Positions 14,314 to 38,835 of a stretch of 41,891 nucleotides of DNA are shown here, piece after piece. Source of the stretch: a virus (taxonomy: Duplodnaviria > Caudoviricetes); IMG/VR virus record IMGVR_UViG_3300048850_000152, positions 1-41,891 of that record; one strand, 5' to 3'. The stretch's first letter is position 1. Every line of letters starts with the position of its first letter. The translations under genes were made by a program, and so were the position numbers. Under the pieces are notes generated by a model. That model did no database searches. It saw only the letters and a program-made list of their open reading frames with translations, and had not been told where the DNA came from.

Positions 14314-14780
14314 AAAAACCGCACTCGCTGCGCCAGCACCTGCTTGCCAGCGTGCCCGCGCTCGCGGCCGATCCTACCAAGCTAGACCTGTTCGTCGACA
14401 AGGGGCGGCTCGTCTGCCGCCCCACCGCCTCGCTGTCGTTCGCCTATCGCTACAGCCTCAACATCGTCGCGCAGGACTATGCCGGCGACGTCAATGCGCT
14501 AATGGTGCCGCTGCTCACGTGGATCGCAGCCAACGAGCCGGATCTGCTCGCCAAGGATCCGCACGAGCCCTTCACCTTCGAGACCGAGATACTCGACGGC
14601 GACCGCGCCGACGTATCGATCGACCTCGAGCTGTCCGAGCGCGTGCGGATCCAGGGGGGTGCAATGGTCTACGTTCCCGACGCGCCGGTCGAAGACAGCT
14701 TCGGCGTGGCCGCACGCCTGGCGCAGATCGCGCTCACCGACGTGGCCGTGCCCGAAACCACGCTGGTGCCGCAGGCGTGA
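14304..14780 (+). CDS. gpR: Tail completion protein gpR
   Basis: KPHSLRQHL, LFVDKG, SLSFAYRYSL, DLELSERV; exact start (14304 or 14310) uncertain. Confidence 0.9.
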   Translation: MPVKKPHSLRQHLLASVPALAADPTKLDLFVDKGRLVCRPTASLSFAYRYSLNIVAQDYAGDVNALMVPLLTWIAANEPDLLAKDPHEPFTFETEILDGDRADVSIDLELSERVRIQGGAMVYVPDAPVEDSFGVAARLAQIALTDVAVPETTLVPQA

Positions 14781-15442
14781 ACCACGACCTCGAGGAGGTA
14801 GAGAGGCTGGCCGGCGCGCTTCTGCGCAGCCTTTCGCCTGCCGAGCGTCGCCGCGCGTTGCGCCGGGTTTCGCGCGCCCTGCAGAAGTCACAGCGCGACC
14901 GCATCGCCCGCCAGAGAAATCCCGATGGCAGCGCGTTTGCGGAGCGCAAGGAGCTGCCAGAGCCCCGACGGGGCAATCATGCGGTTAAGTTCCTCTACCC
15001 GAAAGGCTCCAACGAACCCCGCCTGGTCACCATGAAGAGCTGGGTGCACGACGGCCCGCTGCTGACCGGCTTCGACATCGAAGCGGGCGGAATGCGAAGC
15101 TTCTTCTGGGACAAGGTCGATCGCTGGCTGCCGGTGCCCGCCGAGGAACAGAACAAGGGAGCGGGCAAGCTTCGTCGCAACGGGCACATTCGTCGCAAGG
15201 CGATGTTCCGCAAGCTACGTGGCACTGACGTCCTGAAGGCGGGCTCGACCGACACAGAAGCTTGGGTCGGGTTCGCGGGGCAGGCGTCGCGCGTCGCCAG
15301 CATCCACCAGGAAGGAGGCATGGATCGTCCGTCGCTGAAGTCGAAGGCGGTTCGCTACGCCAAGCGCTCGCTTCTCGGGGTGACGGAGGCCGACCGCACA
15401 CGGATCCTCGATCTGCTTTTCGGGCAGCTCGCCTCCGGTTAG
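14777..15442 (+). CDS. gpS: Virion morphogenesis/tail completion protein gpS
   Basis: RIARQRNPDGSAF, AMFRKLR, RVASIHQEG, YAKRSLLG. Confidence 0.9.
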   Translation: MNHDLEEVERLAGALLRSLSPAERRRALRRVSRALQKSQRDRIARQRNPDGSAFAERKELPEPRRGNHAVKFLYPKGSNEPRLVTMKSWVHDGPLLTGFDIEAGGMRSFFWDKVDRWLPVPAEEQNKGAGKLRRNGHIRRKAMFRKLRGTDVLKAGSTDTEAWVGFAGQASRVASIHQEGGMDRPSLKSKAVRYAKRSLLGVTEADRTRILDLLFGQLASG

Positions 15443-15511
15443 GTCGTGAACCCATAAACGACCGCTCCTAGATCGAGCGCTGAACTGCCGATTGTGGGCG
15501 ATAGCGGACGT

Positions 15512-15886
15512 TCAGCCTAGGCGTTGCGGCGGCTGATTGTAGATTTCGAACTGTAGGGCGGCGAGGTCAAGATCGTGTGTGCTTTCGGGCCCCCACGCGA
15601 AGCCTTCCAGCATGTGCAACCTGCCGCCTTTAATAAAGAGAACGAAGCCGAAGCCGTGCTCTAGGCCGCAGATGCGGGCCTGCGTGGCATAGCCCAGCAC
15701 TGGCGGGCTATTCACAGCGGGAGCATCGTCCGCGACGGTGATCGTCGTGAAGAATCCACCGCCACTGTTCTCGCGGTCGGCTACGACCGACGCGTCAAGC
15801 TGTCGTTCGAGCGGTAGCGCAAGCTCCGGCGTCTCTAAAAAGATGGCTCGAAGTGCCGCCACCTCCAGTTCGGTGAACTCAGTCAT
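15512..15886 (-). CDS. Cassette 1: hypothetical protein (124 aa)
   Basis: MTEFTELE...RENSGGGFF...GLEHGFGFVLFIKGGRLHMLEG; stop overlaps the repeat at 15482. Confidence 0.8.
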   Translation of the reverse strand: MTEFTELEVAALRAIFLETPELALPLERQLDASVVADRENSGGGFFTTITVADDAPAVNSPPVLGYATQARICGLEHGFGFVLFIKGGRLHMLEGFAWGPESTHDLDLAALQFEIYNQPPQRLG

Positions 15887-15936
15887 AACCGCTCGGTAGC
15901 ACAACCGCCGAGCATCCGAACGTCTGCAATTGGTGG

Positions 15937-16209
15937 TTAGCGGACGTTCCGACGCGCCAGGTAGCTCTGCTGCTCGACCGCATCTTCGTCGGTGTAGACA
16001 ATGTCTTCGATGCCGCCAGCGTCATATGTGCCGAGGCCGCGCCGGTCGTATTGAAGCTGCATAGCGTGATGCCAAGATGCCGCATAAATGCAGAAAATGA
16101 GGTGGCCGTCAGGCACCACGGTGGGCCGGATCGCATCGCTGCGCTCGCGAACGATGCTGAACTCGGCTCCGTCTTCGCCTTCCCAATATTCATGAACCAG
16201 CTTTGCCAT
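15937..16209 (-). CDS. Cassette 2: hypothetical protein (90 aa)
   Basis: Ends ...NVR-TAA, encoded by the repeat arm. Confidence 0.75.
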   Translation of the reverse strand: MAKLVHEYWEGEDGAEFSIVRERSDAIRPTVVPDGHLIFCIYAASWHHAMQLQYDRRGLGTYDAGGIEDIVYTDEDAVEQQSYLARRNVR

Positions 16210-16251
16210 GCCGCCTTTTACAGCGCCTCGGCCACGTCCGCTATTGGGTGG

Positions 16252-16467
16252 TTAGCGGACGTTCGTGACGAGCCAGCGAACCGTCCTAAACAGCGCTCCG
16301 ACGCCATATATAACGACGGCAGCAATGGCGAAGATCAGGCCGAGCAGATATACCGGCACAAACGCCTCTGCGTCCGTGATGCCCCCAACCAAACCGATCC
16401 CGCACACGATGGCAATCAGGAGCGGTGCGAAACCAAACAGCAGGAGTTCGAGCCCGATCTTTTTCAT
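16252..16467 (-). CDS. Cassette 3: small two-TM membrane protein (71 aa)
   Basis: MKKIGLELLLFGFAPLL...; ends NVR-TAA in the repeat arm. Confidence 0.7.
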   Translation of the reverse strand: MKKIGLELLLFGFAPLLIAIVCGIGLVGGITDAEAFVPVYLLGLIFAIAAVVIYGVGALFRTVRWLVTNVR

Positions 16468-16653
16468 TGTTGGAAACGTAGATCGTCGGCTCGAATGTCC
16501 GCAAGTGGGCGTTACCTGCCGTCGCGGTTCAGGGGTATTGGCGGGGTACAGCTCAGCGGTTGCGGCTCTCAGACCCAAGCTTTCCGCGGTCTCTGCTTGA
16601 GCGCGGCGGAGGGTCTCTCCGTCGCGAATGTTCAGAAGTGTTAGAAGGGAACG

Positions 16654-16851
16654 CTAGGAGCGTGTGATTGCCGCGCCTGCTGAGATGCAGGCGAACAGTA
16701 ACCATGTCCCCGCTGAAACCCAGAAGATCACCGGACTCTCGTCTCTACGATAGGCGCTGTAGTGCGCCCAGATCCTGCCGGTCTTTAGCCCCCCAACAAG
16801 CATCGATATTGCGAAGATGGTGAGAAGGACGAAAAGCAAGCGATCGCTCAT
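16654..16851 (-). CDS. Cassette 4: small two-TM membrane protein (65 aa)
   Basis: MSDRLLFVLL...GRIW...YRRDESPVIFW...; stop lies in a degenerate repeat. Confidence 0.7.
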   Translation of the reverse strand: MSDRLLFVLLTIFAISMLVGGLKTGRIWAHYSAYRRDESPVIFWVSAGTWLLFACISAGAAITRS

Positions 16852-16988
16852 ACGGCGTCCTAGCCTTTGCCAGCGAGCGTCTACAAGTGGGTGATTGTGG
16901 ACGGGCCGCTTTTGGCATCCCCGTTCGGCAATCGGAGCGTCTGGAAGTGGTGGTGAGCGGAACGGCCGCACTTGGTGCAAAGCGCGAG

Positions 16989-17396
16989 TTAGGCGCCGTT
17001 CCCCGCCTGCTCATATTGAAGACCTTGCGGGGTGTCGGCCATCGTCTGCAATCGGCCGGCGCCCAAGTAGATCAAGTAGCAGTTCCCGGCCGTGGAGAAA
17101 CGCCGTCCCACCTCCGTGCTCGGGCATCGGTTCTGTACTCGTCGTAGCGCGTCACCGGACAGAGAGTAGGATCGCGTGCCGTCGGTGATACGAAGTGCTC
17201 TGATGTCCTGTATCCAGTGGGCTCTTGCTAGCGCCATAGCTTTGCCCGCCGAAACAGGGAAAGCAGACGACCAATGGCCGTAGTCGCGATGAAGATACTG
17301 CACCATTAACTGCGATTGCGTTCGATTATCCACTACGGTGGGCCAAGCGTCACAGGCCGCGAGCAGTGGTAGGAGCAGACAGACAAACGACCGCAT
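16989..17396 (-). CDS. Cassette 5: lipoprotein (135 aa)
   Basis: MRSFVCLLLPLLAAC lipobox; stop lies in the repeat at 16960. Confidence 0.75.
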   Translation of the reverse strand: MRSFVCLLLPLLAACDAWPTVVDNRTQSQLMVQYLHRDYGHWSSAFPVSAGKAMALARAHWIQDIRALRITDGTRSYSLSGDALRRVQNRCPSTEVGRRFSTAGNCYLIYLGAGRLQTMADTPQGLQYEQAGNGA

Positions 17397-17531
17397 GCGA
17401 TTAGCGTATGAGGCCGCGTGAACGGCCGCAAGTGGGCGAAAGCGGACATCCGCGCCTGCGCTGCCGCGAGTGTCCGGTTCTTGGTGGGAAGCGGACATGG
17501 CTCCGGAGCGCACCAACGACTAAGGTAGGAC

Positions 17532-17699
17532 ATGGCCGACGATCAAGCGCGCAACTTCTACCTGTCCATGCTGAACGCCATGGAGGGGCTTCAAGACGAT
17601 CTAGACGCCAACGCGGCACCCGAGACAGCGAAGGCCCTGTTGGACGAGCTAATTGAAGAATGCCGCTCGGATTTCAGGGTGCGATTTGATGTGGGCTAG
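17532..17699 (+). CDS. Cassette 6: small acidic helical protein (55 aa), opposite orientation
   Basis: AAGGTAGGA RBS; MADDQARNFYLSMLNAMEGLQDDLDANAAPETAKALLDELIEECRSDFRVRFDVG (hand-translated). Confidence 0.6.
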   Translation: MADDQARNFYLSMLNAMEGLQDDLDANAAPETAKALLDELIEECRSDFRVRFDVG

Positions 17700-17751
17700 G
17701 TTGGCCGCTGAACGTCTGATTGTGGGCGTTTCCTGCGTCCGAGATTGGTGG

Positions 17752-18126
17752 TTAACTGCCGTTCGCGCTACCAGCCACTTGGGTGCTCGCAGCGGTCGCC
17801 GCTTGCCTTACGCGCGACCAAAGTGGATGCGTTACGAAGTGGCTATCGTCAGCGTCGCCCGCGGCATCCAAGACGGCGCCGAGGGCATCCTTCAAGGCAC
17901 CGATCAACCGGACTTCCATCGCACCGGTAAGCGTGTCGCCGATCGCGCCATCATCAAAGTCGTTGTCATCAAAGAAGAAGTGGAACACCTCATCAATGCC
18001 GGATGCCAATCCGCTCTCGCGCTCGGCCCGCCACATCGTTCGAGGGTCAGCTGCTTGAAGCTCTGAAAGGTAAGCCTGCAATTGACGGCGCACGTGCGGC
18101 TGTGACAGGGCGGGTGCATCGATCAT
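17752..18126 (-). CDS. Cassette 7: SCO4402-like (immunity-protein-like) protein (124 aa)
   Basis: DEVFHFFFDD...IGDTL...E...HPLWSRVRQAA resembles the SCO4402 family (from recall); ends NGS-TAA in the repeat arm. Confidence 0.7.
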   Translation of the reverse strand: MIDAPALSQPHVRRQLQAYLSELQAADPRTMWRAERESGLASGIDEVFHFFFDDNDFDDGAIGDTLTGAMEVRLIGALKDALGAVLDAAGDADDSHFVTHPLWSRVRQAATAASTQVAGSANGS

Positions 18127-18222
18127 TTTGCGATGATCGCGCCTAGTCGGCACGTCCGCAAGTGGGCGATTGCCGAAGGCTGCTGTTGGCTCGATCACGC
18201 CAATCAGACGCACCTCTCCGGC

Positions 18223-18627
18223 TTATCTCGTCCTTGGGCGAGCCAAGCGCAAAGCGAGGAGCAGGCGATGGGCGTGCATGGACACCAGATAGAACAAGCT
18301 CGACGCGATGGCTGAAATGCCAGCCCACTTCATGAAAGCTGCGTCCGTCATTATTGCGCAGGAAGCGACCACGACCAAAGGACCTGTGATTGCGAATGCA
18401 ATTGGGTGACGATCTATCCAATGGCCACATAACGCGATCACTAGAGCCAAAGCGATCATCCATGGGAGCGACAGCAGCCCACCAAGAAACAGGCCTAGGG
18501 CCGCTCCATTTAAGTTGAAGCCGGACGTCGTACCGATTGTCCCTGCGACACCCGTCACGCAGAGCCCGACGCAATGCGCTGCGAGCACTCGCAGGGCTAT
18601 CCTCGTTTCGATGTCGGCCCGCGCCAT
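18223..18627 (-). CDS. Cassette 8: four-TM membrane protein (134 aa)
   Basis: Four hydrophobic segments; lies between the repeats at 18150 and 18660. Confidence 0.7.
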   Translation of the reverse strand: MARADIETRIALRVLAAHCVGLCVTGVAGTIGTTSGFNLNGAALGLFLGGLLSLPWMIALALVIALCGHWIDRHPIAFAITGPLVVVASCAIMTDAAFMKWAGISAIASSLFYLVSMHAHRLLLALRLARPRTR

Positions 18628-18756
18628 CCTATTTTCGTAGCCACTGGTACGGTTCCGCGCAACGGCAGCTATCGGGCACACACGTCCGCCACTGAATGTC
18701 CGCAAATGGGCGTTTCCCGACAGTCGGCTTAATGAGCCTACGACCTAATCCGGCTC

Positions 18757-18777
18757 TTGTGGAGAGCGTCTCCACAA
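18757..18777 (+). promoter_or_regulatory. Late-promoter activator box 2 (before gpJ)
   Basis: TTGTGGAGA-GCG-TCTCCACAA, centred 57 nt before the gpJ ATG. Confidence 0.8.
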
Positions 18778-18823
18778 ACCTGCGCGTCTAGCCCGACCGG
18801 CACCGCGCCCGCGACATGGCGGC

Positions 18824-19720
18824 ATGGCCGCCAGCACTGCTTCTACTCTCGACCTGTCCAGCCTCCCCGCGCCGGATCTGATCGAGCAGCTTCCGTTCGA
18901 CGATGTCCTCGCGCGCATGGTCGCGGACGTAAAGACGCGGCTTCCGGCTTTCGACGCCACGGTCGATGCCGACCCGGCCGTCATCGTCCTGCAGGTCGCC
19001 GCCTACCACCTGCAGCTGCACCGCGCCGCCGTGAACGACGCCGCCCGCCAGCTGATGGTCGCGTCGGCCACGGGCTCCAATCTCGACCAGTTGGCGGCCC
19101 TCGTACGCGTCCAGCGGCTCACGATCGACGAAGGCGATCCCGCTCGCGGCATCCCGCCCAAGCTCGAGAGCGACGCGGCCCTGCGGCAGCGCATAACCCT
19201 TGGCCCCGAGGGCTTCTCCGTCGCCGGCCCGGAACTCGCTTATGTCTTCCACGCCAAGTCGGCAGACGGTGCGGTGCGCGACGCCAGCGCGACGTCGCCT
19301 GCGCCTGGCGAGGTGCTGGTCTCCGTGCTCGCGCGCGACGGCGACGGAACCGCGCCCGCAGATCTGCTCGCCAAGGTCGCCGCGGTCGTGAACAGCGACA
19401 GCGTGCGCCCGCTCGGCGATCTGGTCACCGTCGCCTCGGCCGAGATCCGGCATTTCGAGCTCGCGGCGCGGCTCGTCACCTTCAGCGGTCCCGACGTCGA
19501 CCTGGTGCTGTCCGCCGCGCGCGCCTCGCTCGACGCCTATCTCGCCCGCAGCCGGCTGCTCGGCCGCGACATCACGCTCTCGGGCATTTACGCCGCCCTG
19601 CATGTCTCGGGCGTGATGCGCGTGGAGATCCTGTCGCCCGCCGCCGACGTCGTATGCGACGCCACCCAAGCGGCATACTGCAGCAAGATCACGCTGACGC
19701 ATGGCGGCTATGACGACTGA
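18824..19720 (+). CDS. gpJ: Baseplate assembly protein gpJ
   Basis: LDLSSLPAPDLIEQL, ESDAALRQR, FSVAGPELAYVFHA, VRPLGD. Confidence 0.95.
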   Translation: MAASTASTLDLSSLPAPDLIEQLPFDDVLARMVADVKTRLPAFDATVDADPAVIVLQVAAYHLQLHRAAVNDAARQLMVASATGSNLDQLAALVRVQRLTIDEGDPARGIPPKLESDAALRQRITLGPEGFSVAGPELAYVFHAKSADGAVRDASATSPAPGEVLVSVLARDGDGTAPADLLAKVAAVVNSDSVRPLGDLVTVASAEIRHFELAARLVTFSGPDVDLVLSAARASLDAYLARSRLLGRDITLSGIYAALHVSGVMRVEILSPAADVVCDATQAAYCSKITLTHGGYDD

Positions 19721-30297: not shown

Positions 30298-30615
30298 TTA
30301 AGCGGGAAAGAGCCGAGCCCTCAGCACGTCACCCGTCTGCTTCGCCAGCGCACTCCAGATAGCGAATTGCACAGCAATCAACGACAGCAGCACTGCACAC
30401 ACAACAAAGGGCCAGCTCGCCCATGTTGCTATCGGCGTGGTGTTGGCCAATTCGAAGAAGCCCGGTGCGAACTTCACCAGCACATAGCCGAAGAACGCCT
30501 GTTCCAGGTACGCGGGGATCGCAATCAGACAGAGGACGAACGTGGACACCTCGCTCCACGGCTTGCCACGCCGGGAGAGCAACAGACGATTCACCTTCCG
30601 AAGCATCTGTTTCAT
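30298..30615 (-). CDS. Small membrane protein (105 aa), moron
   Basis: GAAGGGAG RBS, two hydrophobic segments; divergent from 30729. Confidence 0.6.
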   Translation of the reverse strand: MKQMLRKVNRLLLSRRGKPWSEVSTFVLCLIAIPAYLEQAFFGYVLVKFAPGFFELANTTPIATWASWPFVVCAVLLSLIAVQFAIWSALAKQTGDVLRARLFPA

Positions 30616-30728
30616 GCCGAGTCTCCCTTCGCCACGTGGCCCGAGCCGCTTTGGTTTACATTTTCCGGACCGGTTGACAAATCCTGAAAAACGCACAGGA
30701 TGCCGACGCAACTGGGGGACAAGCTGCC

Positions 30729-31328
30729 GTGCCGAAGCAATACCCGTGGGACATCCATCCGGACCTCACCGAAGAACGATTGGTGAAGGTCGCCGGCCTC
30801 ATTCGGCGCGGCCGCGAAGATGCAGTCGATCGACACGACGAAAGCATCGGCGACAACAACTGGCTGCTCGGTTGCAGCGCCTACCAGTTTGGCTGCTTCC
30901 AGATTGGCAAGGCTGCAGGGACGGACGGCTATCAATGGCTGAAGGTCATCAACCCATCGTTGGAGTTTGTTTTCCAGGTCGGTGAGTATCCTATTCGCTT
31001 CTACCGAGACGATGCGGAGGAGCTCAGTATGCGCGGACGCGCACGTGCCCACGCTGAATTGGATCAGCTCAGCCTAGCCTTCCCTGCTCGCGAGACAGCG
31101 CCCGCTTGCCGGTTTGTCATCAACACCGATGGAGAGGGCTCGCTTCTGGCGGTGAAGTTCGTCGGGTTTGAGGGCGAGATGCCCCTGATGGTATGGGACG
31201 TGCCACTTGGCGCAGAGCCAGTGAAGCTCCCGCCCGCAGCCGAAGCGCCGAGTGAAGGCGTCGAACTGCCAGCACCCGCAGTCCGCTTGCCAAGCGACGA
31301 GAAAGATCGGAAGGGCAGCGCCGCCTAA
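30729..31328 (+). CDS. Putative RosmerTA-type toxin (RmrT-like)
   Basis: 199-aa protein of unknown function immediately upstream of an HTH-ImmA/IrrE gene; TTGACA upstream at 30683. Confidence 0.55.
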   Translation: MPKQYPWDIHPDLTEERLVKVAGLIRRGREDAVDRHDESIGDNNWLLGCSAYQFGCFQIGKAAGTDGYQWLKVINPSLEFVFQVGEYPIRFYRDDAEELSMRGRARAHAELDQLSLAFPARETAPACRFVINTDGEGSLLAVKFVGFEGEMPLMVWDVPLGAEPVKLPPAAEAPSEGVELPAPAVRLPSDEKDRKGSAA

Positions 31329-31360
31329 GGCGACGCTTCGGCACGAACGATACAGGATAG

Positions 31361-32503
31361 ATGATGTGGCCTGACGACGGCTTTGCCGGCGAGCAGCTGC
31401 GACTCGCGCGGCTCGCGCATGGAATGTCCCTGGACGAGCTGGGACAGCGGGTGGCTGTCAGCCGCCAATATCTGAACCAGCTGGAGATGGGCACGAAGCC
31501 GCCCACCTCGGAGATGACGGCCGCGCTCGCTGACGTGCTCGGCGTCACGCCACGCTTCTTCGCGCCTACCGCCCGCCCGCCCGTGCACGCGGAGCAATGC
31601 CATTTCCGCAAGCAGGCGACGACGCCTGCGTCCGTGACCAGCCAGGTGCTCGCACGCGGCACCCTGCTCGATCGCTTCATTGCGCGACTGGATACGGTGC
31701 TGGAACTGCCCAAGGTTGATTTCCCGCAGATCCCCGTCTCCTCGGCCGAGGACATCGAGGCAGCGGCCGAGGCGTGCCGCCGCCACTGGGGGCTCGGCCT
31801 CAGCGGGCCGATCACAAACATGACGCGGGTCGTCGAGAATGCCGGGGCGATCGTCGCCCATTTCAGCGGTATTTCCGATCGCGTCGACGCGCTTTCGATG
31901 GACCGCCCTCGCCCGCTCATTATCCGCAGCGAGGCGAAGCCTAGCGCGTGCCGCTTGCGCTTCGACATCGCGCATGAGTGCGGGCACCTGGTCATGCATC
32001 GAGGCATTCAGACCGGAGATCGGGAGACGGAAGGCCAGGCGCATCGCTTTGCCAGCGCATTCCTGCTCCCACGCGGTGCCTTCGCCCGCGAATTCCCGAG
32101 CGGTCGTTATCTGAACTGGTCGGCGATTTTCGACCTCAAACTACGCTGGAAAGTTTCCGCCCGCGCGATCATTCGGCGCGCTTACGATCTTGGTCTCATC
32201 ACCGCCGATCGGTACCGCTCGGGCAACATCCACCTGAACCGCAATGGGCAGGCGAAAGTAGAACTGCATGACGACAACATCGTACTAGAGACACCGGAGG
32301 TGTTCACCAGCGCGTTCGCGGCGCTCGCAAGTACACGCCACGATGCTTTGCGAGACTTGGCTGAGAGTGTCGCCATGAGAGACGGTATGTTTGAGCGCCT
32401 GCTCGGGCAGCCGCTTCCAGGAACCGGCCAGACCACATACCTCGATAACGTTGTTCCGCTGTTCCGATCCCCTCCCTCGGTGCCGATCAGCACAAGCCGG
32501 TAG
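31361..32503 (+). CDS. XRE HTH + ImmA/IrrE zinc metallopeptidase (RmrA-like)
   Basis: LRLARLAHGMSLDEL...QLEMG HTH; RLRFDIAHECGHLVMH (HExxH), E.QAHRFASAFLLP. Confidence 0.9.
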   Translation: MMWPDDGFAGEQLRLARLAHGMSLDELGQRVAVSRQYLNQLEMGTKPPTSEMTAALADVLGVTPRFFAPTARPPVHAEQCHFRKQATTPASVTSQVLARGTLLDRFIARLDTVLELPKVDFPQIPVSSAEDIEAAAEACRRHWGLGLSGPITNMTRVVENAGAIVAHFSGISDRVDALSMDRPRPLIIRSEAKPSACRLRFDIAHECGHLVMHRGIQTGDRETEGQAHRFASAFLLPRGAFAREFPSGRYLNWSAIFDLKLRWKVSARAIIRRAYDLGLITADRYRSGNIHLNRNGQAKVELHDDNIVLETPEVFTSAFAALASTRHDALRDLAESVAMRDGMFERLLGQPLPGTGQTTYLDNVVPLFRSPPSVPISTSR

Positions 32504-32806
32504 TTGTCAGTTCCAGACCAAAAAGCGCAGATGAGCAGTAACTCAGCGCGGAGCTAACACTCCCTCAGCCGTCCGGATCTCCACTCGAGCGACAAGTTGC
32601 CAAGTGTCGGTGTCGCAGCGGAACGCCGGCGCAAAAGGACGTGGGAATCCAGAGCCCTTCCGGCCGCGCGCCAAGCGACCTCGCGCGGAGTGTGGCAAGG
32701 CAGCAACACCTCCCCAAAACCTTAAGCAGGTCGCAACCATATCCCGGACTTGTCATTTTATCGGGTGCGATGTACGACATCGCTCGGACCGGGAAGGAGA
32801 CAATTC

Positions 32807-33112
32807 ATGGCCGTAGAAGAGCCGGCGTCAAAAGGGGCATTTGAGTTCGAGACGCATTGCGTCCACCACCTGGCAGAAGAAAATTACAGCCTCACGGTGC
32901 GGAACGAAGTGTCTCGCAAAATGGCTTCGTTGGGAGTCAACCTCACAGACGTGCACCATGTGATGAAGCAAGGGAAGGTCATTTACAGTGGGATGCGCGA
33001 CCGCGGCAGCCTGTGGGTGGTCCGCGGTCGGTTAGTGGACGGTGGGCGGCTCGATGTCACCCTCACGTTCAACCTGAGTGAATTGCACGTCGAGTTGATC
33101 GACTTGGCTTGA
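32807..33112 (+). CDS. DUF4258/RelE-like putative toxin (101 aa)
   Basis: AAGGAG RBS; KM...GV...DV.HV...G.V........W.V.G...DG..L.V pattern; upstream of an HTH antitoxin-like gene. Confidence 0.55.
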   Translation: MAVEEPASKGAFEFETHCVHHLAEENYSLTVRNEVSRKMASLGVNLTDVHHVMKQGKVIYSGMRDRGSLWVVRGRLVDGGRLDVTLTFNLSELHVELIDLA

Positions 33113-33159
33113 TTGTTTCCGTCTCGGTCCCCTTTATTCATTTTTTGAGGATATTTATT

Positions 33160-33783
33160 ATGGCCAAGAAGCTGCATGGAGGGGCTAATACCAAAGTAGT
33201 TGACGCTTTTCACGCAGTCGACCTCGGCGCCCCGTTTAAGGTCATTCTGACCAACAGCGTGTCAGCCAGTTTCGACACAGAGACTGGCGAGATGCTCAGT
33301 TATACCATCCCGGATTTCGAGGAACTGGTGCGCTCGGTAGCGATGTCCCGGCTGACGCATGACCGTAAGCTCAGCGGCGCCGAGTTACAGTTCCTACGTA
33401 AGGCCGTAAGCGTATCGCAGGCTGAACTCGCTAGAGTCCTAGATTGCAAGGCGGACCACCTCTCAAAGGTCGAAAACGGGCGTTATCCTCTTACGACCAT
33501 GGCAGAACGGTGGGCTCGCATCTTTCTTTTCAAGAAAGCTGCCAAACTCCATAACATGGAGGATGGAAAAATGAAGAACAAAGTGCATCAACTATTAGAC
33601 CAGATGTTTCATGGTCTAAAACCCGTAGCTGTTTTTTCTGATGAGGAACTAGAGTTCAGCTTCCACTACAAACCGCGGGATGAATCATCCAGCGACAGCA
33701 TCGCTGCCAATGATGACTGGGTGGAAGCAGACGCCAATCACACTTGGAGCGACGGCCAAGAGCTACAAGCAGCGTGTGGTTAA
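33160..33783 (+). CDS. MqsA/HigA-like XRE antitoxin with acidic C-terminal tail
   Basis: GAGG RBS; LSGAELQFLRKAVSVSQAELARVL...LSKVENG HTH. Confidence 0.75.
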   Translation: MAKKLHGGANTKVVDAFHAVDLGAPFKVILTNSVSASFDTETGEMLSYTIPDFEELVRSVAMSRLTHDRKLSGAELQFLRKAVSVSQAELARVLDCKADHLSKVENGRYPLTTMAERWARIFLFKKAAKLHNMEDGKMKNKVHQLLDQMFHGLKPVAVFSDEELEFSFHYKPRDESSSDSIAANDDWVEADANHTWSDGQELQAACG

Positions 33784-33803
33784 GCTTAGAACGTCTATTG
33801 GAA

Positions 33804-33835
33804 TTCGGGAGCGCGGGTGCAACCGCGCTCCCGAA
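33804..33835. terminator. Hairpin after the toxin-antitoxin operon
   Basis: TTCGGGAGCGCGG-GTGCAA-CCGCGCTCCCGAA, 13-bp stem, no clear U-tract. Confidence 0.55.
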
Positions 33836-33951
33836 GCCCTAGCAGACCGCTGCCCCTGTTAGGGCTGTGACTCCGGCCAGAGCGAGACGTGTGATTTAGC
33901 ACGGCTAGTCGGAGGAGCAAAGCATCGGCGGCATTTCGTGAGGTAAATGTC

Positions 33952-34080
33952 ATGTCAAAGCAGAAAGTCCCGACACAAACTGCGCACCGGAGTTCAACCA
34001 GCGGGCGTTTTGTAACGCCCGCGTACGCTAAGGCGCATCCCAAAACCACCGAGCGCGAGAAAATCAAACATCCGAAATGA
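33952..34080 (+). CDS. Small basic protein (42 aa; SGRFVT..YA..HP.TT motif)
   Basis: GAGGT RBS; MSKQKVPTQTAHRSSTSGRFVTPAYAKAHPKTTEREKIKHPK (hand-translated); 10-bp hairpin at 34085-34110 follows. Confidence 0.7.
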   Translation: MSKQKVPTQTAHRSSTSGRFVTPAYAKAHPKTTEREKIKHPK

Positions 34081-37337: not shown

Positions 37338-37672
37338 CCGCACCCTCCATCGTCCGCCTCGACCAACGGCTCAGCCGGGCGGCCGAGATCGGCAAGGGCA
37401 TCCGCCTGGAACCGGCCGACCTCGACCTGCTCGCCAGCCTCGGCCTTTTCGACCTCACCCACCAAGCCAAATCCGAATATCTCAAGGAACAGACGAAATG
37501 CCGGGACGCCCGCCGCCGCTCTATCGCCGCGGAAAATACTGGGTCGACAAGCTCCGGCGTGCAGACGGTTCTGAACGGTCGCCCCGCTGGTATGTCTTCT
37601 GGTACGATCCCGAGGCGCGACGCGAGGCAAGCGCATCAACGGGCACTGATGACGCCGAACAAGCGATCATAG
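37334..37672 (+). CDS. Hypothetical protein overlapping the int 5' end (excisionase position)
   Basis: ATG after a purine-rich tract; 175-nt overlap with int. Confidence 0.5.
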   Translation: MTAPSIVRLDQRLSRAAEIGKGIRLEPADLDLLASLGLFDLTHQAKSEYLKEQTKCRDARRRSIAAENTGSTSSGVQTVLNGRPAGMSSGTIPRRDARQAHQRALMTPNKRS

Positions 37673-38835
37673 CATGCGACCGGCGCTACCTCGCCGATCG
37701 CGAGGAAGCGCCCGCCTTCTGCTACGTCTGTGGCCAGCCCCTTGCCTCCGCCGCAGCCTACCTGCTGAGCGACGCCATCGCCGACTACCGGCTTGAGTGG
37801 GGCGATCTGCAGCCCTCTGCGGACACCATTCGCGCGCGCCTGAAGCACGTTCTGGACTTCCTCCAGGCAGAGGAAACCCGCGCCGGCATGTACGGGCTTG
37901 AGACCAGCTGCGCAGTGGCGTGTGGAACCCCATTCATCGCGGCGTTCCGCGCCTGGTCGAAAGACCAGCCCGTCGTGTGGCGAAACAAGAAAGGCGAAAT
38001 CACGACCTCGCGGGCGCGCTCCGCCGCAAGCACCGAGGAGTCGGTGCTGCAGCTGGCTGCTGTGCTCAACCACGCCGCCGACGCGGATCCACCGCGATCG
38101 GAGCGCCGACCGGTGTACAGACCACTTCCGCGCAAACAGGTGTCCCGTCCCCGCCGCCACCGAGTCGACGTGCCGGTGCTGGCGCGAATGGTCCGGTACG
38201 CAGCCGAGCCTGGCAAGAAGCGCACCTCGCTGCACGCCTTTCTGGTCGCGTCGATATGCACGCTCGCCCGCCCCGATGCTGTTGTCGATATCTGCGTTGC
38301 GCCTGAGCGGGAACAGTGGTTCCTGGGATCGCCGACACTGGACCTCAACCCGTTCGGCCGCGCGCAAACAAAGAAGTTCCGCCCGACCCTGCCGGTCCTA
38401 CCGATCCTGGCGGAGTGGCTCACGGCCGAGCTCGCCGCGTACGAGAAGCTGGATGGCGCGAATCGCAGGGGCGCGGGCTACCTGGTCAACTACTTCGGGC
38501 GACCCGTGCAGGACGTCGACACGTCTTGGCGCACGATGCTCGAGGAGCTCCGCCTGCCGACCGGCCGGGAGTGGAAGCCGTACATCCTGCGGCACAGCCT
38601 CGCAACGATCCTGCGCAACCGCGGCGTCGCGAAGTGGGATCTGGAAGGCTTCATGGGTCACGGCGCCGGAAGCACGACCGAGACCTACGCGATCGGCCGA
38701 TTCGAGACGGTCCGCGCGGCTCTAGAGGACATCATCGGTGAAATAGAAGCGGCCGCGCCTGGCGCGATGCGCAGAACCTGCGCCGAAGTCTCACTATCCG
38801 GCCCTTCAAAGGGAGACCTAAAAATGACCGGATAG
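37498..38835 (+). CDS. int: Tyrosine recombinase/integrase
   Basis: Catalytic R (TLARP), YILRH (Y in place of the first H of HxxR), MGH and Y (TTETY); abuts the tRNA 3' end. Confidence 0.9.
   Translation: MPGRPPPLYRRGKYWVDKLRRADGSERSPRWYVFWYDPEARREASASTGTDDAEQAIIACDRRYLADREEAPAFCYVCGQPLASAAAYLLSDAIADYRLEWGDLQPSADTIRARLKHVLDFLQAEETRAGMYGLETSCAVACGTPFIAAFRAWSKDQPVVWRNKKGEITTSRARSAASTEESVLQLAAVLNHAADADPPRSERRPVYRPLPRKQVSRPRRHRVDVPVLARMVRYAAEPGKKRTSLHAFLVASICTLARPDAVVDICVAPEREQWFLGSPTLDLNPFGRAQTKKFRPTLPVLPILAEWLTAELAAYEKLDGANRRGAGYLVNYFGRPVQDVDTSWRTMLEELRLPTGREWKPYILRHSLATILRNRGVAKWDLEGFMGHGAGSTTETYAIGRFETVRAALEDIIGEIEAAAPGAMRRTCAEVSLSGPSKGDLKMTG

Follow-up and report, generated by a model that had tools for sequence, protein, structure and literature searches.

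Modules bounded by arm-core-arm sites between gpS and gpJ of a P2-like provirus: a candidate system of tyrosine-recombinase cassette exchange

The array between gpS and gpJ

The 41,891-nt stretch of virus DNA analyzed here, referred to as the window (IMG/VR record IMGVR_UViG_3300048850_000152), is a complete P2-like provirus carrying gpR, gpS, gpJ, an Ogr/Delta protein, a repressor-like protein, and an integrase. Between gpS and gpJ lies an array of eight small, mutually unrelated genes, seven on the minus strand and one on the plus strand, interspersed with sites of about 32 bp in which two 13-bp inverted arms surround a short core. A preliminary description of this DNA proposed a site-specific gene-capture system. 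The array is read here as a slot of modules exchanged at the 6–7-bp core of the sites, likely by a tyrosine recombinase of 200–210 amino acids (aa) that consists of the catalytic domain only and would work in trans on duplex DNA, a reading to which we assign a probability of roughly 0.7. The features of the array and its flanks are as follows (“profile” marks sites found with the site profile described below).

14777..15442, + strand: gpS tail completion gene, left flank of the array (PF05069)
15482..15513, + strand: outer left site, core A TGGGCG, core at 15495–15500 (profile)
15512..15886, − strand: cargo gene 1, 124 aa, no family
15918..15949, + strand: site with core B TGGTGG (profile)
15937..16209, − strand: cargo gene 2, 90 aa, stop in arm
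16232..16264, + strand: site with 7-bp core B TGGGTGG (profile)
16252..16467, − strand: cargo gene 3, 71 aa, hydrophobic, stop in arm
16493..16524, + strand: site with core A (profile)
16512..16625, no strand: gene-less module between core A and the decayed site
16626..16657, + strand: decayed B-type site holding the gene 4 stop (loose ends in other contigs)
16654..16851, − strand: cargo gene 4, 65 aa, hydrophobic, no family
16875..16906, + strand: site with variant core and compensatory arm change (profile)
16935..16991, + strand: two overlapping sites, 16935 with core B and 16960 with core TGGTGC, weak (profile)
16989..17396, − strand: cargo gene 5, 135 aa, lipoprotein-like (a lead only)
17420..17500, + strand: core A site (17420), 49-nt core-to-core linker, core B site (17469)
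17532..17699, + strand: cargo gene 6, 55 aa, the sole plus-strand gene
17710..17764, + strand: overlapping core A (17710) and core B (17733) sites (profile)
17752..18126, − strand: cargo gene 7, 124 aa, SCO4402 family / DUF7945, stop in arm
18150..18181, + strand: site with core A (profile)
18223..18627, − strand: cargo gene 8, 134 aa, hydrophobic
18694..18725, + strand: outer right site, core A (profile)
18758..18778, no strand: TTGT..ACAA dyad preceding gpJ, shared by most of the related loci listed
18824..19720, + strand: gpJ baseplate gene, right flank of the array (PF04865)

Structure of the sites

A profile seeded on the window sites, retrained on related loci, and used at a threshold of at least 11 bits finds 13 sites at 15482–18725 and no others in the 41.9 kb. 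Random windows yield 0–2 matches at 11 bits or more and 0–1 at 15 bits or more (20 trials each). The five sites quoted in the preliminary description are all where it placed them, and the single orientation that it noted holds for all 13, which lie on the plus strand. Under a profile built from ~386 sites at 225 loci, the 13 window sites score 8.5–45.6 bits. A decayed 14th site at 16626 receives no profile score; its intact version is present on two other contigs, with loose ends at 16640 in X3 and 16626 in X7 (labels with L denote loci, G genomes, and X sequencing runs, the last as contigs only). Partial arm-like motifs at 18660–18693, immediately left of the last site, are possibly a decayed linker.

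The family consensus is GAAYGTCCGC-WWN, a 6–7-bp core, and WWA-GCGGAC-RTTC. Both arms follow one consensus, and direction is carried by the core. The short asymmetric core of the preliminary description is present, but it falls into two classes, TGGGCG (core A, ending in CG) and TGGTGG (core B, ending in GG), rather than one. Folded on the plus strand, the window sites give −0.2 to −10.8 kcal/mol, and many scarcely fold. Two inverted protein-binding arms on duplex DNA fit the sites better than a hairpin does, because the inner three arm positions are A/T-rich and non-complementary and arm pairing (7.69 of 13) is close to the 7.42 ± 0.05 reached when arms are shuffled among sites (385 sites). 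The arms being only loosely complementary, the compensatory change reported at 16875 is real but not typical. A hairpin or single-stranded DNA mechanism was considered and rejected on the weak arm covariation and the many barely folding sites.

Six of the seven minus-strand genes have their stop in an arm or overlapping one, as had been described, gene 4 only by way of the decayed site; the stop of gene 8 is 42 nt away from its arm. Genes 2 and 3 end in NVR and gene 7 in NGS; the rest end in RLG, TRS, NGA, and RTR.

Breakpoints at the core

Direct evidence for exchange comes from near-identical phages whose slots differ. A 32-kb contig of X11 matches the window up to 15498 and again from 18707, so that both outer arms are retained, with 3,571 different bases in between. 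Position 18707 is the first base of the last core, and the X11 prophage matches the window onward from there. At the other end, loci L002 and L003 have the left flank and left arm of the window and diverge inside the first core, and a contig from X1, possibly the source sample, leaves the window at 15497, also inside the first core.

Single modules can be followed into other contexts as well. The gene 2 unit (15928–16247) occurs at 94% identity on an X4 contig with other flanks, the gene 3 unit is found in X3, X4, and X11, the gene 5 unit (16949–17435) is present at 97% on another contig, the gene 6 unit is found in X9, starting at the B core, and genes 7 and 8 travel together (17746–18713) at 98% on a further contig. 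In all, genes 2, 3, 5, 6, and 7+8 lie at 94–99% identity on contigs of other studies with different neighbors.

Ends were counted where at least 20 letters were unmatched, on listed contigs of at least 280 nt covering cargo or flank; linker-only and site-only matches, the empty allele, and one piece outside the array were left out, and the contig tables do not include 61 and 60 shorter pieces. Among the contigs listed, 18 of 20 such ends fall within −3 to +6 nt of a core start (the core of the 17469 site being taken as 17482), and windows of this width cover ~4% of the array. Joints that reorder sites in X7, X10, and X11 have a short side of only 21–23 letters and are not counted. Arm identities point the same way in independent pairs. 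Pairs of sites sharing the left flank have arm identities of 0.83 on the left and 0.54 on the right (n = 23, some from the same loci), and those sharing the right flank have 0.67 on the left and 0.82 on the right (n = 19, some from the same loci), with a background of 0.58. Breakpoints thus map to the core, and with modules that end there and slots that differ between near-identical phages, the gene-capture proposal is supported. The sites are very probably recombination sites, judging by these sequence comparisons.

Two core types and their order

Neighboring sites across loci are mostly co-oriented (196/230). Among these 196 pairs, core A is followed by core B at less than 150 nt 45 times and core B by core A across a gene-size gap 77 times; long A-to-A and B-to-B spacings number 21 and 16. 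A second set, from a genus of four genomes bearing the exact cores of the window, repeats the pattern (18 short A-to-B and 29 long B-to-A spacings of 62), with 48 nt in 12 of its 19 short spacings and single B-gene-A units at many places. The usual plus-strand order is therefore core B, an opposite-strand gene, core A, a short linker, and core B. The window follows this order less strictly, with the succession A, B, B, A, decayed B, variant, B, variant, A, B, A, B, A, A. A good model locus is G258:C1:1446394–1469835 (L378–L379), where 34 sites with the cores of the window and 48-nt linkers occupy ~24 kb; by eye, a P4-like integrase gene lies ~9 kb from this array.

At three junctions the other core follows the same left side: at 15495 (L002, L003, X11), where the core elsewhere is B-type, and at 15931 (X9) and 16245 (X11), where it is core A. 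Because these junctions keep the left side and switch the core, crossovers between A and B would have to occur within the shared TGG. Pairing of like with like appears to be the rule and unlike pairing a leak, since the last two core bases are kept in 21/23 and 17/19 of the flank-sharing pairs.

Empty, filled, and replaced slots in related prophages

Of 46 related loci found with gpS, 39 reach gpJ. Thirteen of these are empty, with 121–165 bp between the two genes, and 26 carry inserts. One of the empty loci, L001 (94% gpS identity), has a 142-bp gap and no site, and an X3 contig joins 15430 directly to 18743, another empty allele. Because the empty allele has no site, the first site pair likely entered the phage by a route other than the sites. 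The inserts extend beyond the outer arms on both sides, by ~40–50 nt past the first arm and by ~18 nt past the last.

At 14 bits or more, sites are found in the inserts of L007 (nine), L038 (seven), L045 (five), L009 (one), and L028 (one), and three further inserts have weak sites; sites are also present in five of seven truncated related loci. Arrays in related loci occur in either orientation and hold other genes. By tblastx against the window array, three of six compared arrays have no match and L045 has weak matches only, and L002 has the left flank and a linker in common with it. Related prophages thus do not carry one fixed block: L001 is empty, the interval of X11 is replaced, and other arrays hold different genes. 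The gpS–gpJ interval is a general insertion hotspot, because most inserts show no detected site; P2 similarly has orf30 between S and V. Single good sites elsewhere in related prophages (L025:16885, L006:8302) raise the possibility that other slots are used.

Cargo genes and gene-less modules

The eight cargo proteins have no significant match in PADLOC or PHROGs, so an anti-phage role finds no support. In the ESM Atlas, genes 1 and 5 match hypothetical clusters only. A 63% homologue of gene 1 in L172 lies between B and A sites. Gene 3 has a different 3′ end (16252–16261) in X4 and X11, possibly a pre-capture state or a secondary-site event. In other arrays, 25 of 117 cargo frames have a Pfam match, among them Imm53, EamA, nitroreductase, glyoxalase, and Hfx_Cass5, and 92 have none (some frames may be miscalled). 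Larger cargo occupies the related phage slots L038:3906–7398 and L045:10109–11633: a 710-aa protease/autotransporter-like gene, an Imm53 immunity gene, and a pair of regulator and oxidoreductase genes (named by eye except Imm53).

The ~115-bp gene-less module (window 16506–16645; L002:10873–11012; L018:20–150) has many different flanks in X1, X4, X7, and X11 and in two other phages. Folding of 16506–16645 with two homologues retains a 3′ hairpin, with weak covariation. Its role might be regulatory, or it might encode a small RNA or be what is left of a gene.

The position of cargo starts suggests leaderless promoters with their −35 box in the site. Outward from A sites through their left arm, start codons (ATG) followed by an open frame peak at 35–37 nt (39 of 162), and a TAnnnT peak at +23 is in register with the arm TTGCGG at +1. 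In the four-genome genus the ATG pattern is seen at 18 of 46 A sites vs none of 43 B sites. In the window, the start lies at 35–38 nt in five of the seven minus-strand genes. X2, an RNA run, has contigs over parts of the array, which cannot show transcription.

A candidate enzyme

The candidate enzyme belongs to a family of 210-aa tyrosine recombinases (the mini-recombinase), found via a pseudogene in G173 and present in 80 of 251 genomes of the sampled bacterial family. It aligns with the catalytic domain of XerD only, and the residues R-K-HxxR-H-Y are discernible by eye. Tyrosine invertases of the FimB/FimE type, ~200 aa long, are also catalytic-domain-only; they invert one switch and are not known to exchange modules. 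Matches to the NCBIfam “tyrosine-type DNA invertase” models are weak (E 0.0013 and 0.02; 18 and 14.5 bits vs cut-offs of 222 and 221).

What would tie the mini-recombinase to the system is that its gene is itself flanked by sites at part of its loci. With a profile trained without mini-recombinase loci, site density is 0.89 per kb up to 250 nt from the gene vs 0–0.29 per kb further out. A site lies within 300 nt at 26 of 70 mini-recombinase loci, compared with 1 of 26 loci of other tyrosine recombinases within 1.5 kb. In one clade the gene has a TGGGCCG site before it and a B site ~79 nt past its stop, at fixed distances (~78–80 nt downstream, 50–60 nt upstream), and near-identical copies of the gene diverge directly after the core on both sides. 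Co-occurrence of gene and site is only modest, however (odds ratio 2.3–3.2). In Escherichia coli, the cores on either side of the homologue are the same two as those around fun(Z) of coliphage P2. In E. coli NZ_CP080246.1, a chromosomal array (L326:3463–7731) has five TGGCAC/GAGCGA sites around a 200-aa recombinase. DNA matches to the E. coli gene are present in 875 of 5,426 genomes, 774 of them at 80% coverage or more, and the candidate enzyme is very common (8,000/8,000 scored clusters), so the idea can be tested directly in E. coli.

On this evidence the mini-recombinase is probably the enzyme of the system. As the gene is missing from the provirus and from site-rich genomes, it must, if so, act in trans, perhaps transiently. 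A phage collection holds only three records matching it, and a motif search within 2.5 kb of sites at 225 loci found no recombinase; nor was the mini-recombinase found in the four genomes of the genus with the window's cores.

Proposed exchange mechanism

In the proposed scheme, a crossover between like cores (A × A, B × B) would take out or bring in a gene together with its linker, and a pair of crossovers would substitute everything that lies between an outer pair, as in cassette exchange. Cores A and B share TGG and the last G, and a central 2-bp mismatch may be tolerated; the resulting A × B crossovers would delete linkers and give the A-A and B-B junctions of the window. Each cargo gene would bring its own leaderless promoter, with a −35 box within the arm at core A, and no array promoter would be needed because each cargo gene likely carries its own.

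Weighing the evidence

Several observations weigh against this scheme. Recombination, binding, and a circular form are all unseen; the run data are contigs only, and no cassette circle appears in them. Sites are detected in a minority of the gpS–gpJ inserts (5/26 at 14 bits or more, 8/26 at 11 bits or more). Two counted ends, both at 16261 (X4 and X11), are 16 nt off the core. The preliminary description expected cargo homologues elsewhere to be flanked by sites, and for those in other loci this holds in four of six cases, with a site within 250 nt; two have none nearby. The promoter is a positional pattern only, and a sigma-70 consensus scan gave nothing above chance. As for the enzyme, the mini-recombinase was not found in the provirus or in the viral-contig scan, and it is absent from five site-rich genomes of uncertain completeness, three of them with the cores of the window. 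The strict site occurs in 28 of 80 genomes with the gene vs 32 of 171 without it (odds ratio 2.3, p = 0.007, uncorrected for kinship). No scoring site lies within 300 nt at 44 of 70 mini-recombinase loci, a copy on a Pseudomonas plasmid has no site, and no copy flanked on both sides by the 6-bp cores of the window was found, L262 having them upstream only.

Alternatively, the sites could be real recombination sites used by host XerC/XerD or another resident recombinase, the mini-recombinase being mere cargo. The five site-rich genomes without the gene (G258, G188, G097, G001, G171) do have Xer-size tyrosine recombinases, and the 6-bp spacer and module logic resemble those of the pdif modules in the excerpted text of PMC13141974. 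However, the ATAA-N6-TTAT frame of the pdif table in that excerpt occurs in 0 of 427 sites, the same arms flank the mini-recombinase in E. coli, and the fixed distances between gene and sites in one clade also speak for the mini-recombinase; we regard this alternative as unlikely. Less probable again is that the sites are promoter or protein-binding repeats and that modules are shuffled by homologous or microhomology recombination with no dedicated enzyme. A −35-like hexamer in one arm, in register with cargo starts, and the frequent filling of the gpS–gpJ interval by site-free DNA would agree with it, but breakpoints cluster in the core, the arm on the unshared side drops toward background identity, partners share short imperfect stretches only, and the alternation of two cores comes with a linker of fixed length (48 nt for 12 of the 19 short spacings).

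Two further explanations are very improbable. The integrase of the prophage itself (37498–38835) is the sole tyrosine recombinase found in the window, but sites of this family also occur in chromosomes, plasmids, and unrelated P2-like phages, and none is near the integrase gene, which makes its involvement improbable. An atypical integron array, or CALIN, with degenerate attC hairpins would account for the single co-oriented small genes with stops in the site, and a cargo gene at a different locus belongs by its match to Hfx_Cass5, a family of integron cassettes. Against it, the array holds 0 attC skeletons vs 0.58 ± 1.03 by chance (RYYYAAC..GTTRRRY, 55–145 nt, complementary ends), the sites are 32 bp long, with weak arm covariation, many barely folding, and a central crossover, and there is no IntI: the window integrase has no TIGR02249 match and the mini-recombinase scores 25 bits vs a cut-off of 265. 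This is the most improbable of the four. The statement that the sites match neither attC nor dif agrees with these results. An Rfam search gave one chance match only (E 3.8).

Distribution and the P2 Z/fun locus

The preliminary description held that the system loads phages. The array does lie in a phage, but the sites are not phage-specific: a strict 7-bp-core pattern is found in the chromosomes of 60 of 251 family genomes, with up to 37 matches each (reversed-pattern controls, 0–1), and the family extends to E. coli. Sites are scattered in small clusters round one chromosome. Array DNA has no match among plasmids, the exact site pattern has none in viral contigs, and an over-strict pattern finds five loci in genome contigs. 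At G188:C29:54000–57300 and G258:C6:83500–87000, a cassette lies ~2.4 kb from a gene for an Xer-size recombinase, probably through a shared insertion place.

Two sites border fun(Z) of coliphage P2: the one toward G scores 13 bits and has core TGGCAC, and the one toward FI is weak (1.3 bits) and has core GAGCGA. Core TGGCAC is also present among the other sites analyzed. Nilsson, Karlsson, and Haggard-Ljungquist reportedly described, in 2004, inverted repeats flanking Z/fun of P2-like coliphages and inserts with breakpoints at the flanking repeat. The window sites and these inverted repeats very likely belong to the same family, which was probably first seen in P2. The P2 locus has one gene between two sites at G–FI, while the window has eight genes and 13–14 sites at S–J; the window array further differs in its other cores, gene-less linkers, and candidate enzyme. 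New here are single cassettes that can be traced into other contexts, a phage slot whose entire content between the outer cores has been replaced, junctions at which the core has switched, and the geometry of the putative promoter in the arm. In their excerpted text, bioRxiv 2021.01.21.427644 and the P2-hotspot paper PMC13586616 mention the Z/fun locus without such sites, and the excerpts of PMC13100340, PMC6379469, and PMC3091744 add nothing further on them. A full-text literature search, with subscription papers and supplements outside its scope, found no description of the arrays or the enzyme.

Comparison with known cassette systems

In its working the system resembles the pdif modules of Acinetobacter. 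As excerpted from PMC13141974, arm-spacer-arm sites acted on by XerC/XerD bound the cargo there, crossover takes place in the site, spacer identity guides the choice of partners with some tolerance, and two crossovers can replace single modules. The modules of the window likewise end at the spacer or core. The arms of pdif are two different Xer boxes and neighboring sites are inverted, whereas the window family has one arm consensus and direct neighbors and lacks the Xer motif.

Integrons and CALINs, as portrayed in the excerpted PMC4889954, are similar in their small, mostly unknown, co-oriented single genes, in stops within the site, and in the lack of an enzyme nearby. The window system differs in that attC, IntI, and a single platform are all missing, the crossover is central, and the cargo apparently brings promoters of its own. 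The CGTC-tagged REP elements in the excerpt of PMC3733652 resemble the sites as short palindromic repeats present many times per alphaproteobacterial genome, and the window arms contain CGTC or TGTC. Those elements have an unpaired end tag, 8–9-bp stems, and 4–5-nt loops and form mostly head-to-head dimers; in the window each arm contains the motif internally, the arms pair only loosely, and the sites, in direct orientation, mark module ends. With no attC skeleton and none of the tag, stem, loop, and dimer features of REPs, the sites appear to be neither. We regard the system as a variant of its own within cassette exchange by tyrosine recombinases.

Prophage setting

The gpS–gpJ interval has a GC content of 59% vs 69% in the flanking structural genes. 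The TTGT..ACAA dyad at 18758–18778 forms the right edge of inserts in related phage loci and is likely a late-promoter activator site. Where the preliminary description placed the array inside one tail operon, it more likely lies between two transcription units, at the place held in P2 by orf30, a terminator, and the pV promoter, by analogy with that phage. The host genes 3′ of the provirus, named by eye, are HU-like and Lon-like. The host is probably a sphingomonad, since four of five genomes from the sampled family have a Lon 77–83% identical to its own and candidate-enzyme homologues from that family bear Sphingomonadales names. A second accessory region of lower GC (30298–34000, 53–66%) has no sites and contains unknown open reading frames, with a helix-turn-helix and IrrE-like M78 peptidase gene at 31361–32503. 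A pectate-lyase-like beta-helix gene (1409–2815) lies in a lower-GC stretch left of a portal-like gene.

Significance

The wider proposal, for which we consider the odds slightly favorable, is that these arrays represent a third, pan-proteobacterial cassette system beside integrons and dif modules. A mobile mini-recombinase, itself a module, would act in trans at two mismatch-tolerant cores and swap self-promoted genes among chromosomes, plasmids, and phage hotspots, the Z/fun locus of P2 included. A 210-aa recombinase with 32-bp sites and naturally heterospecific cores could serve as a compact cassette-exchange tool, and the sites would offer a sequence tag for mining small unknown adaptive genes, such as the 92 of 117 frames without Pfam. 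If correct, the proposal would supply a mechanism for cargo turnover at some P2-like phage hotspots; for its own cos-adjacent hotspot, the excerpted bioRxiv 2021.01.21.427644 only speculates on a route. Arrays of the window type are common in Alphaproteobacteria, a class for which the excerpted text of PMC4889954 reports no integrons or CALINs in 243 genomes, and the system would fill that gap.

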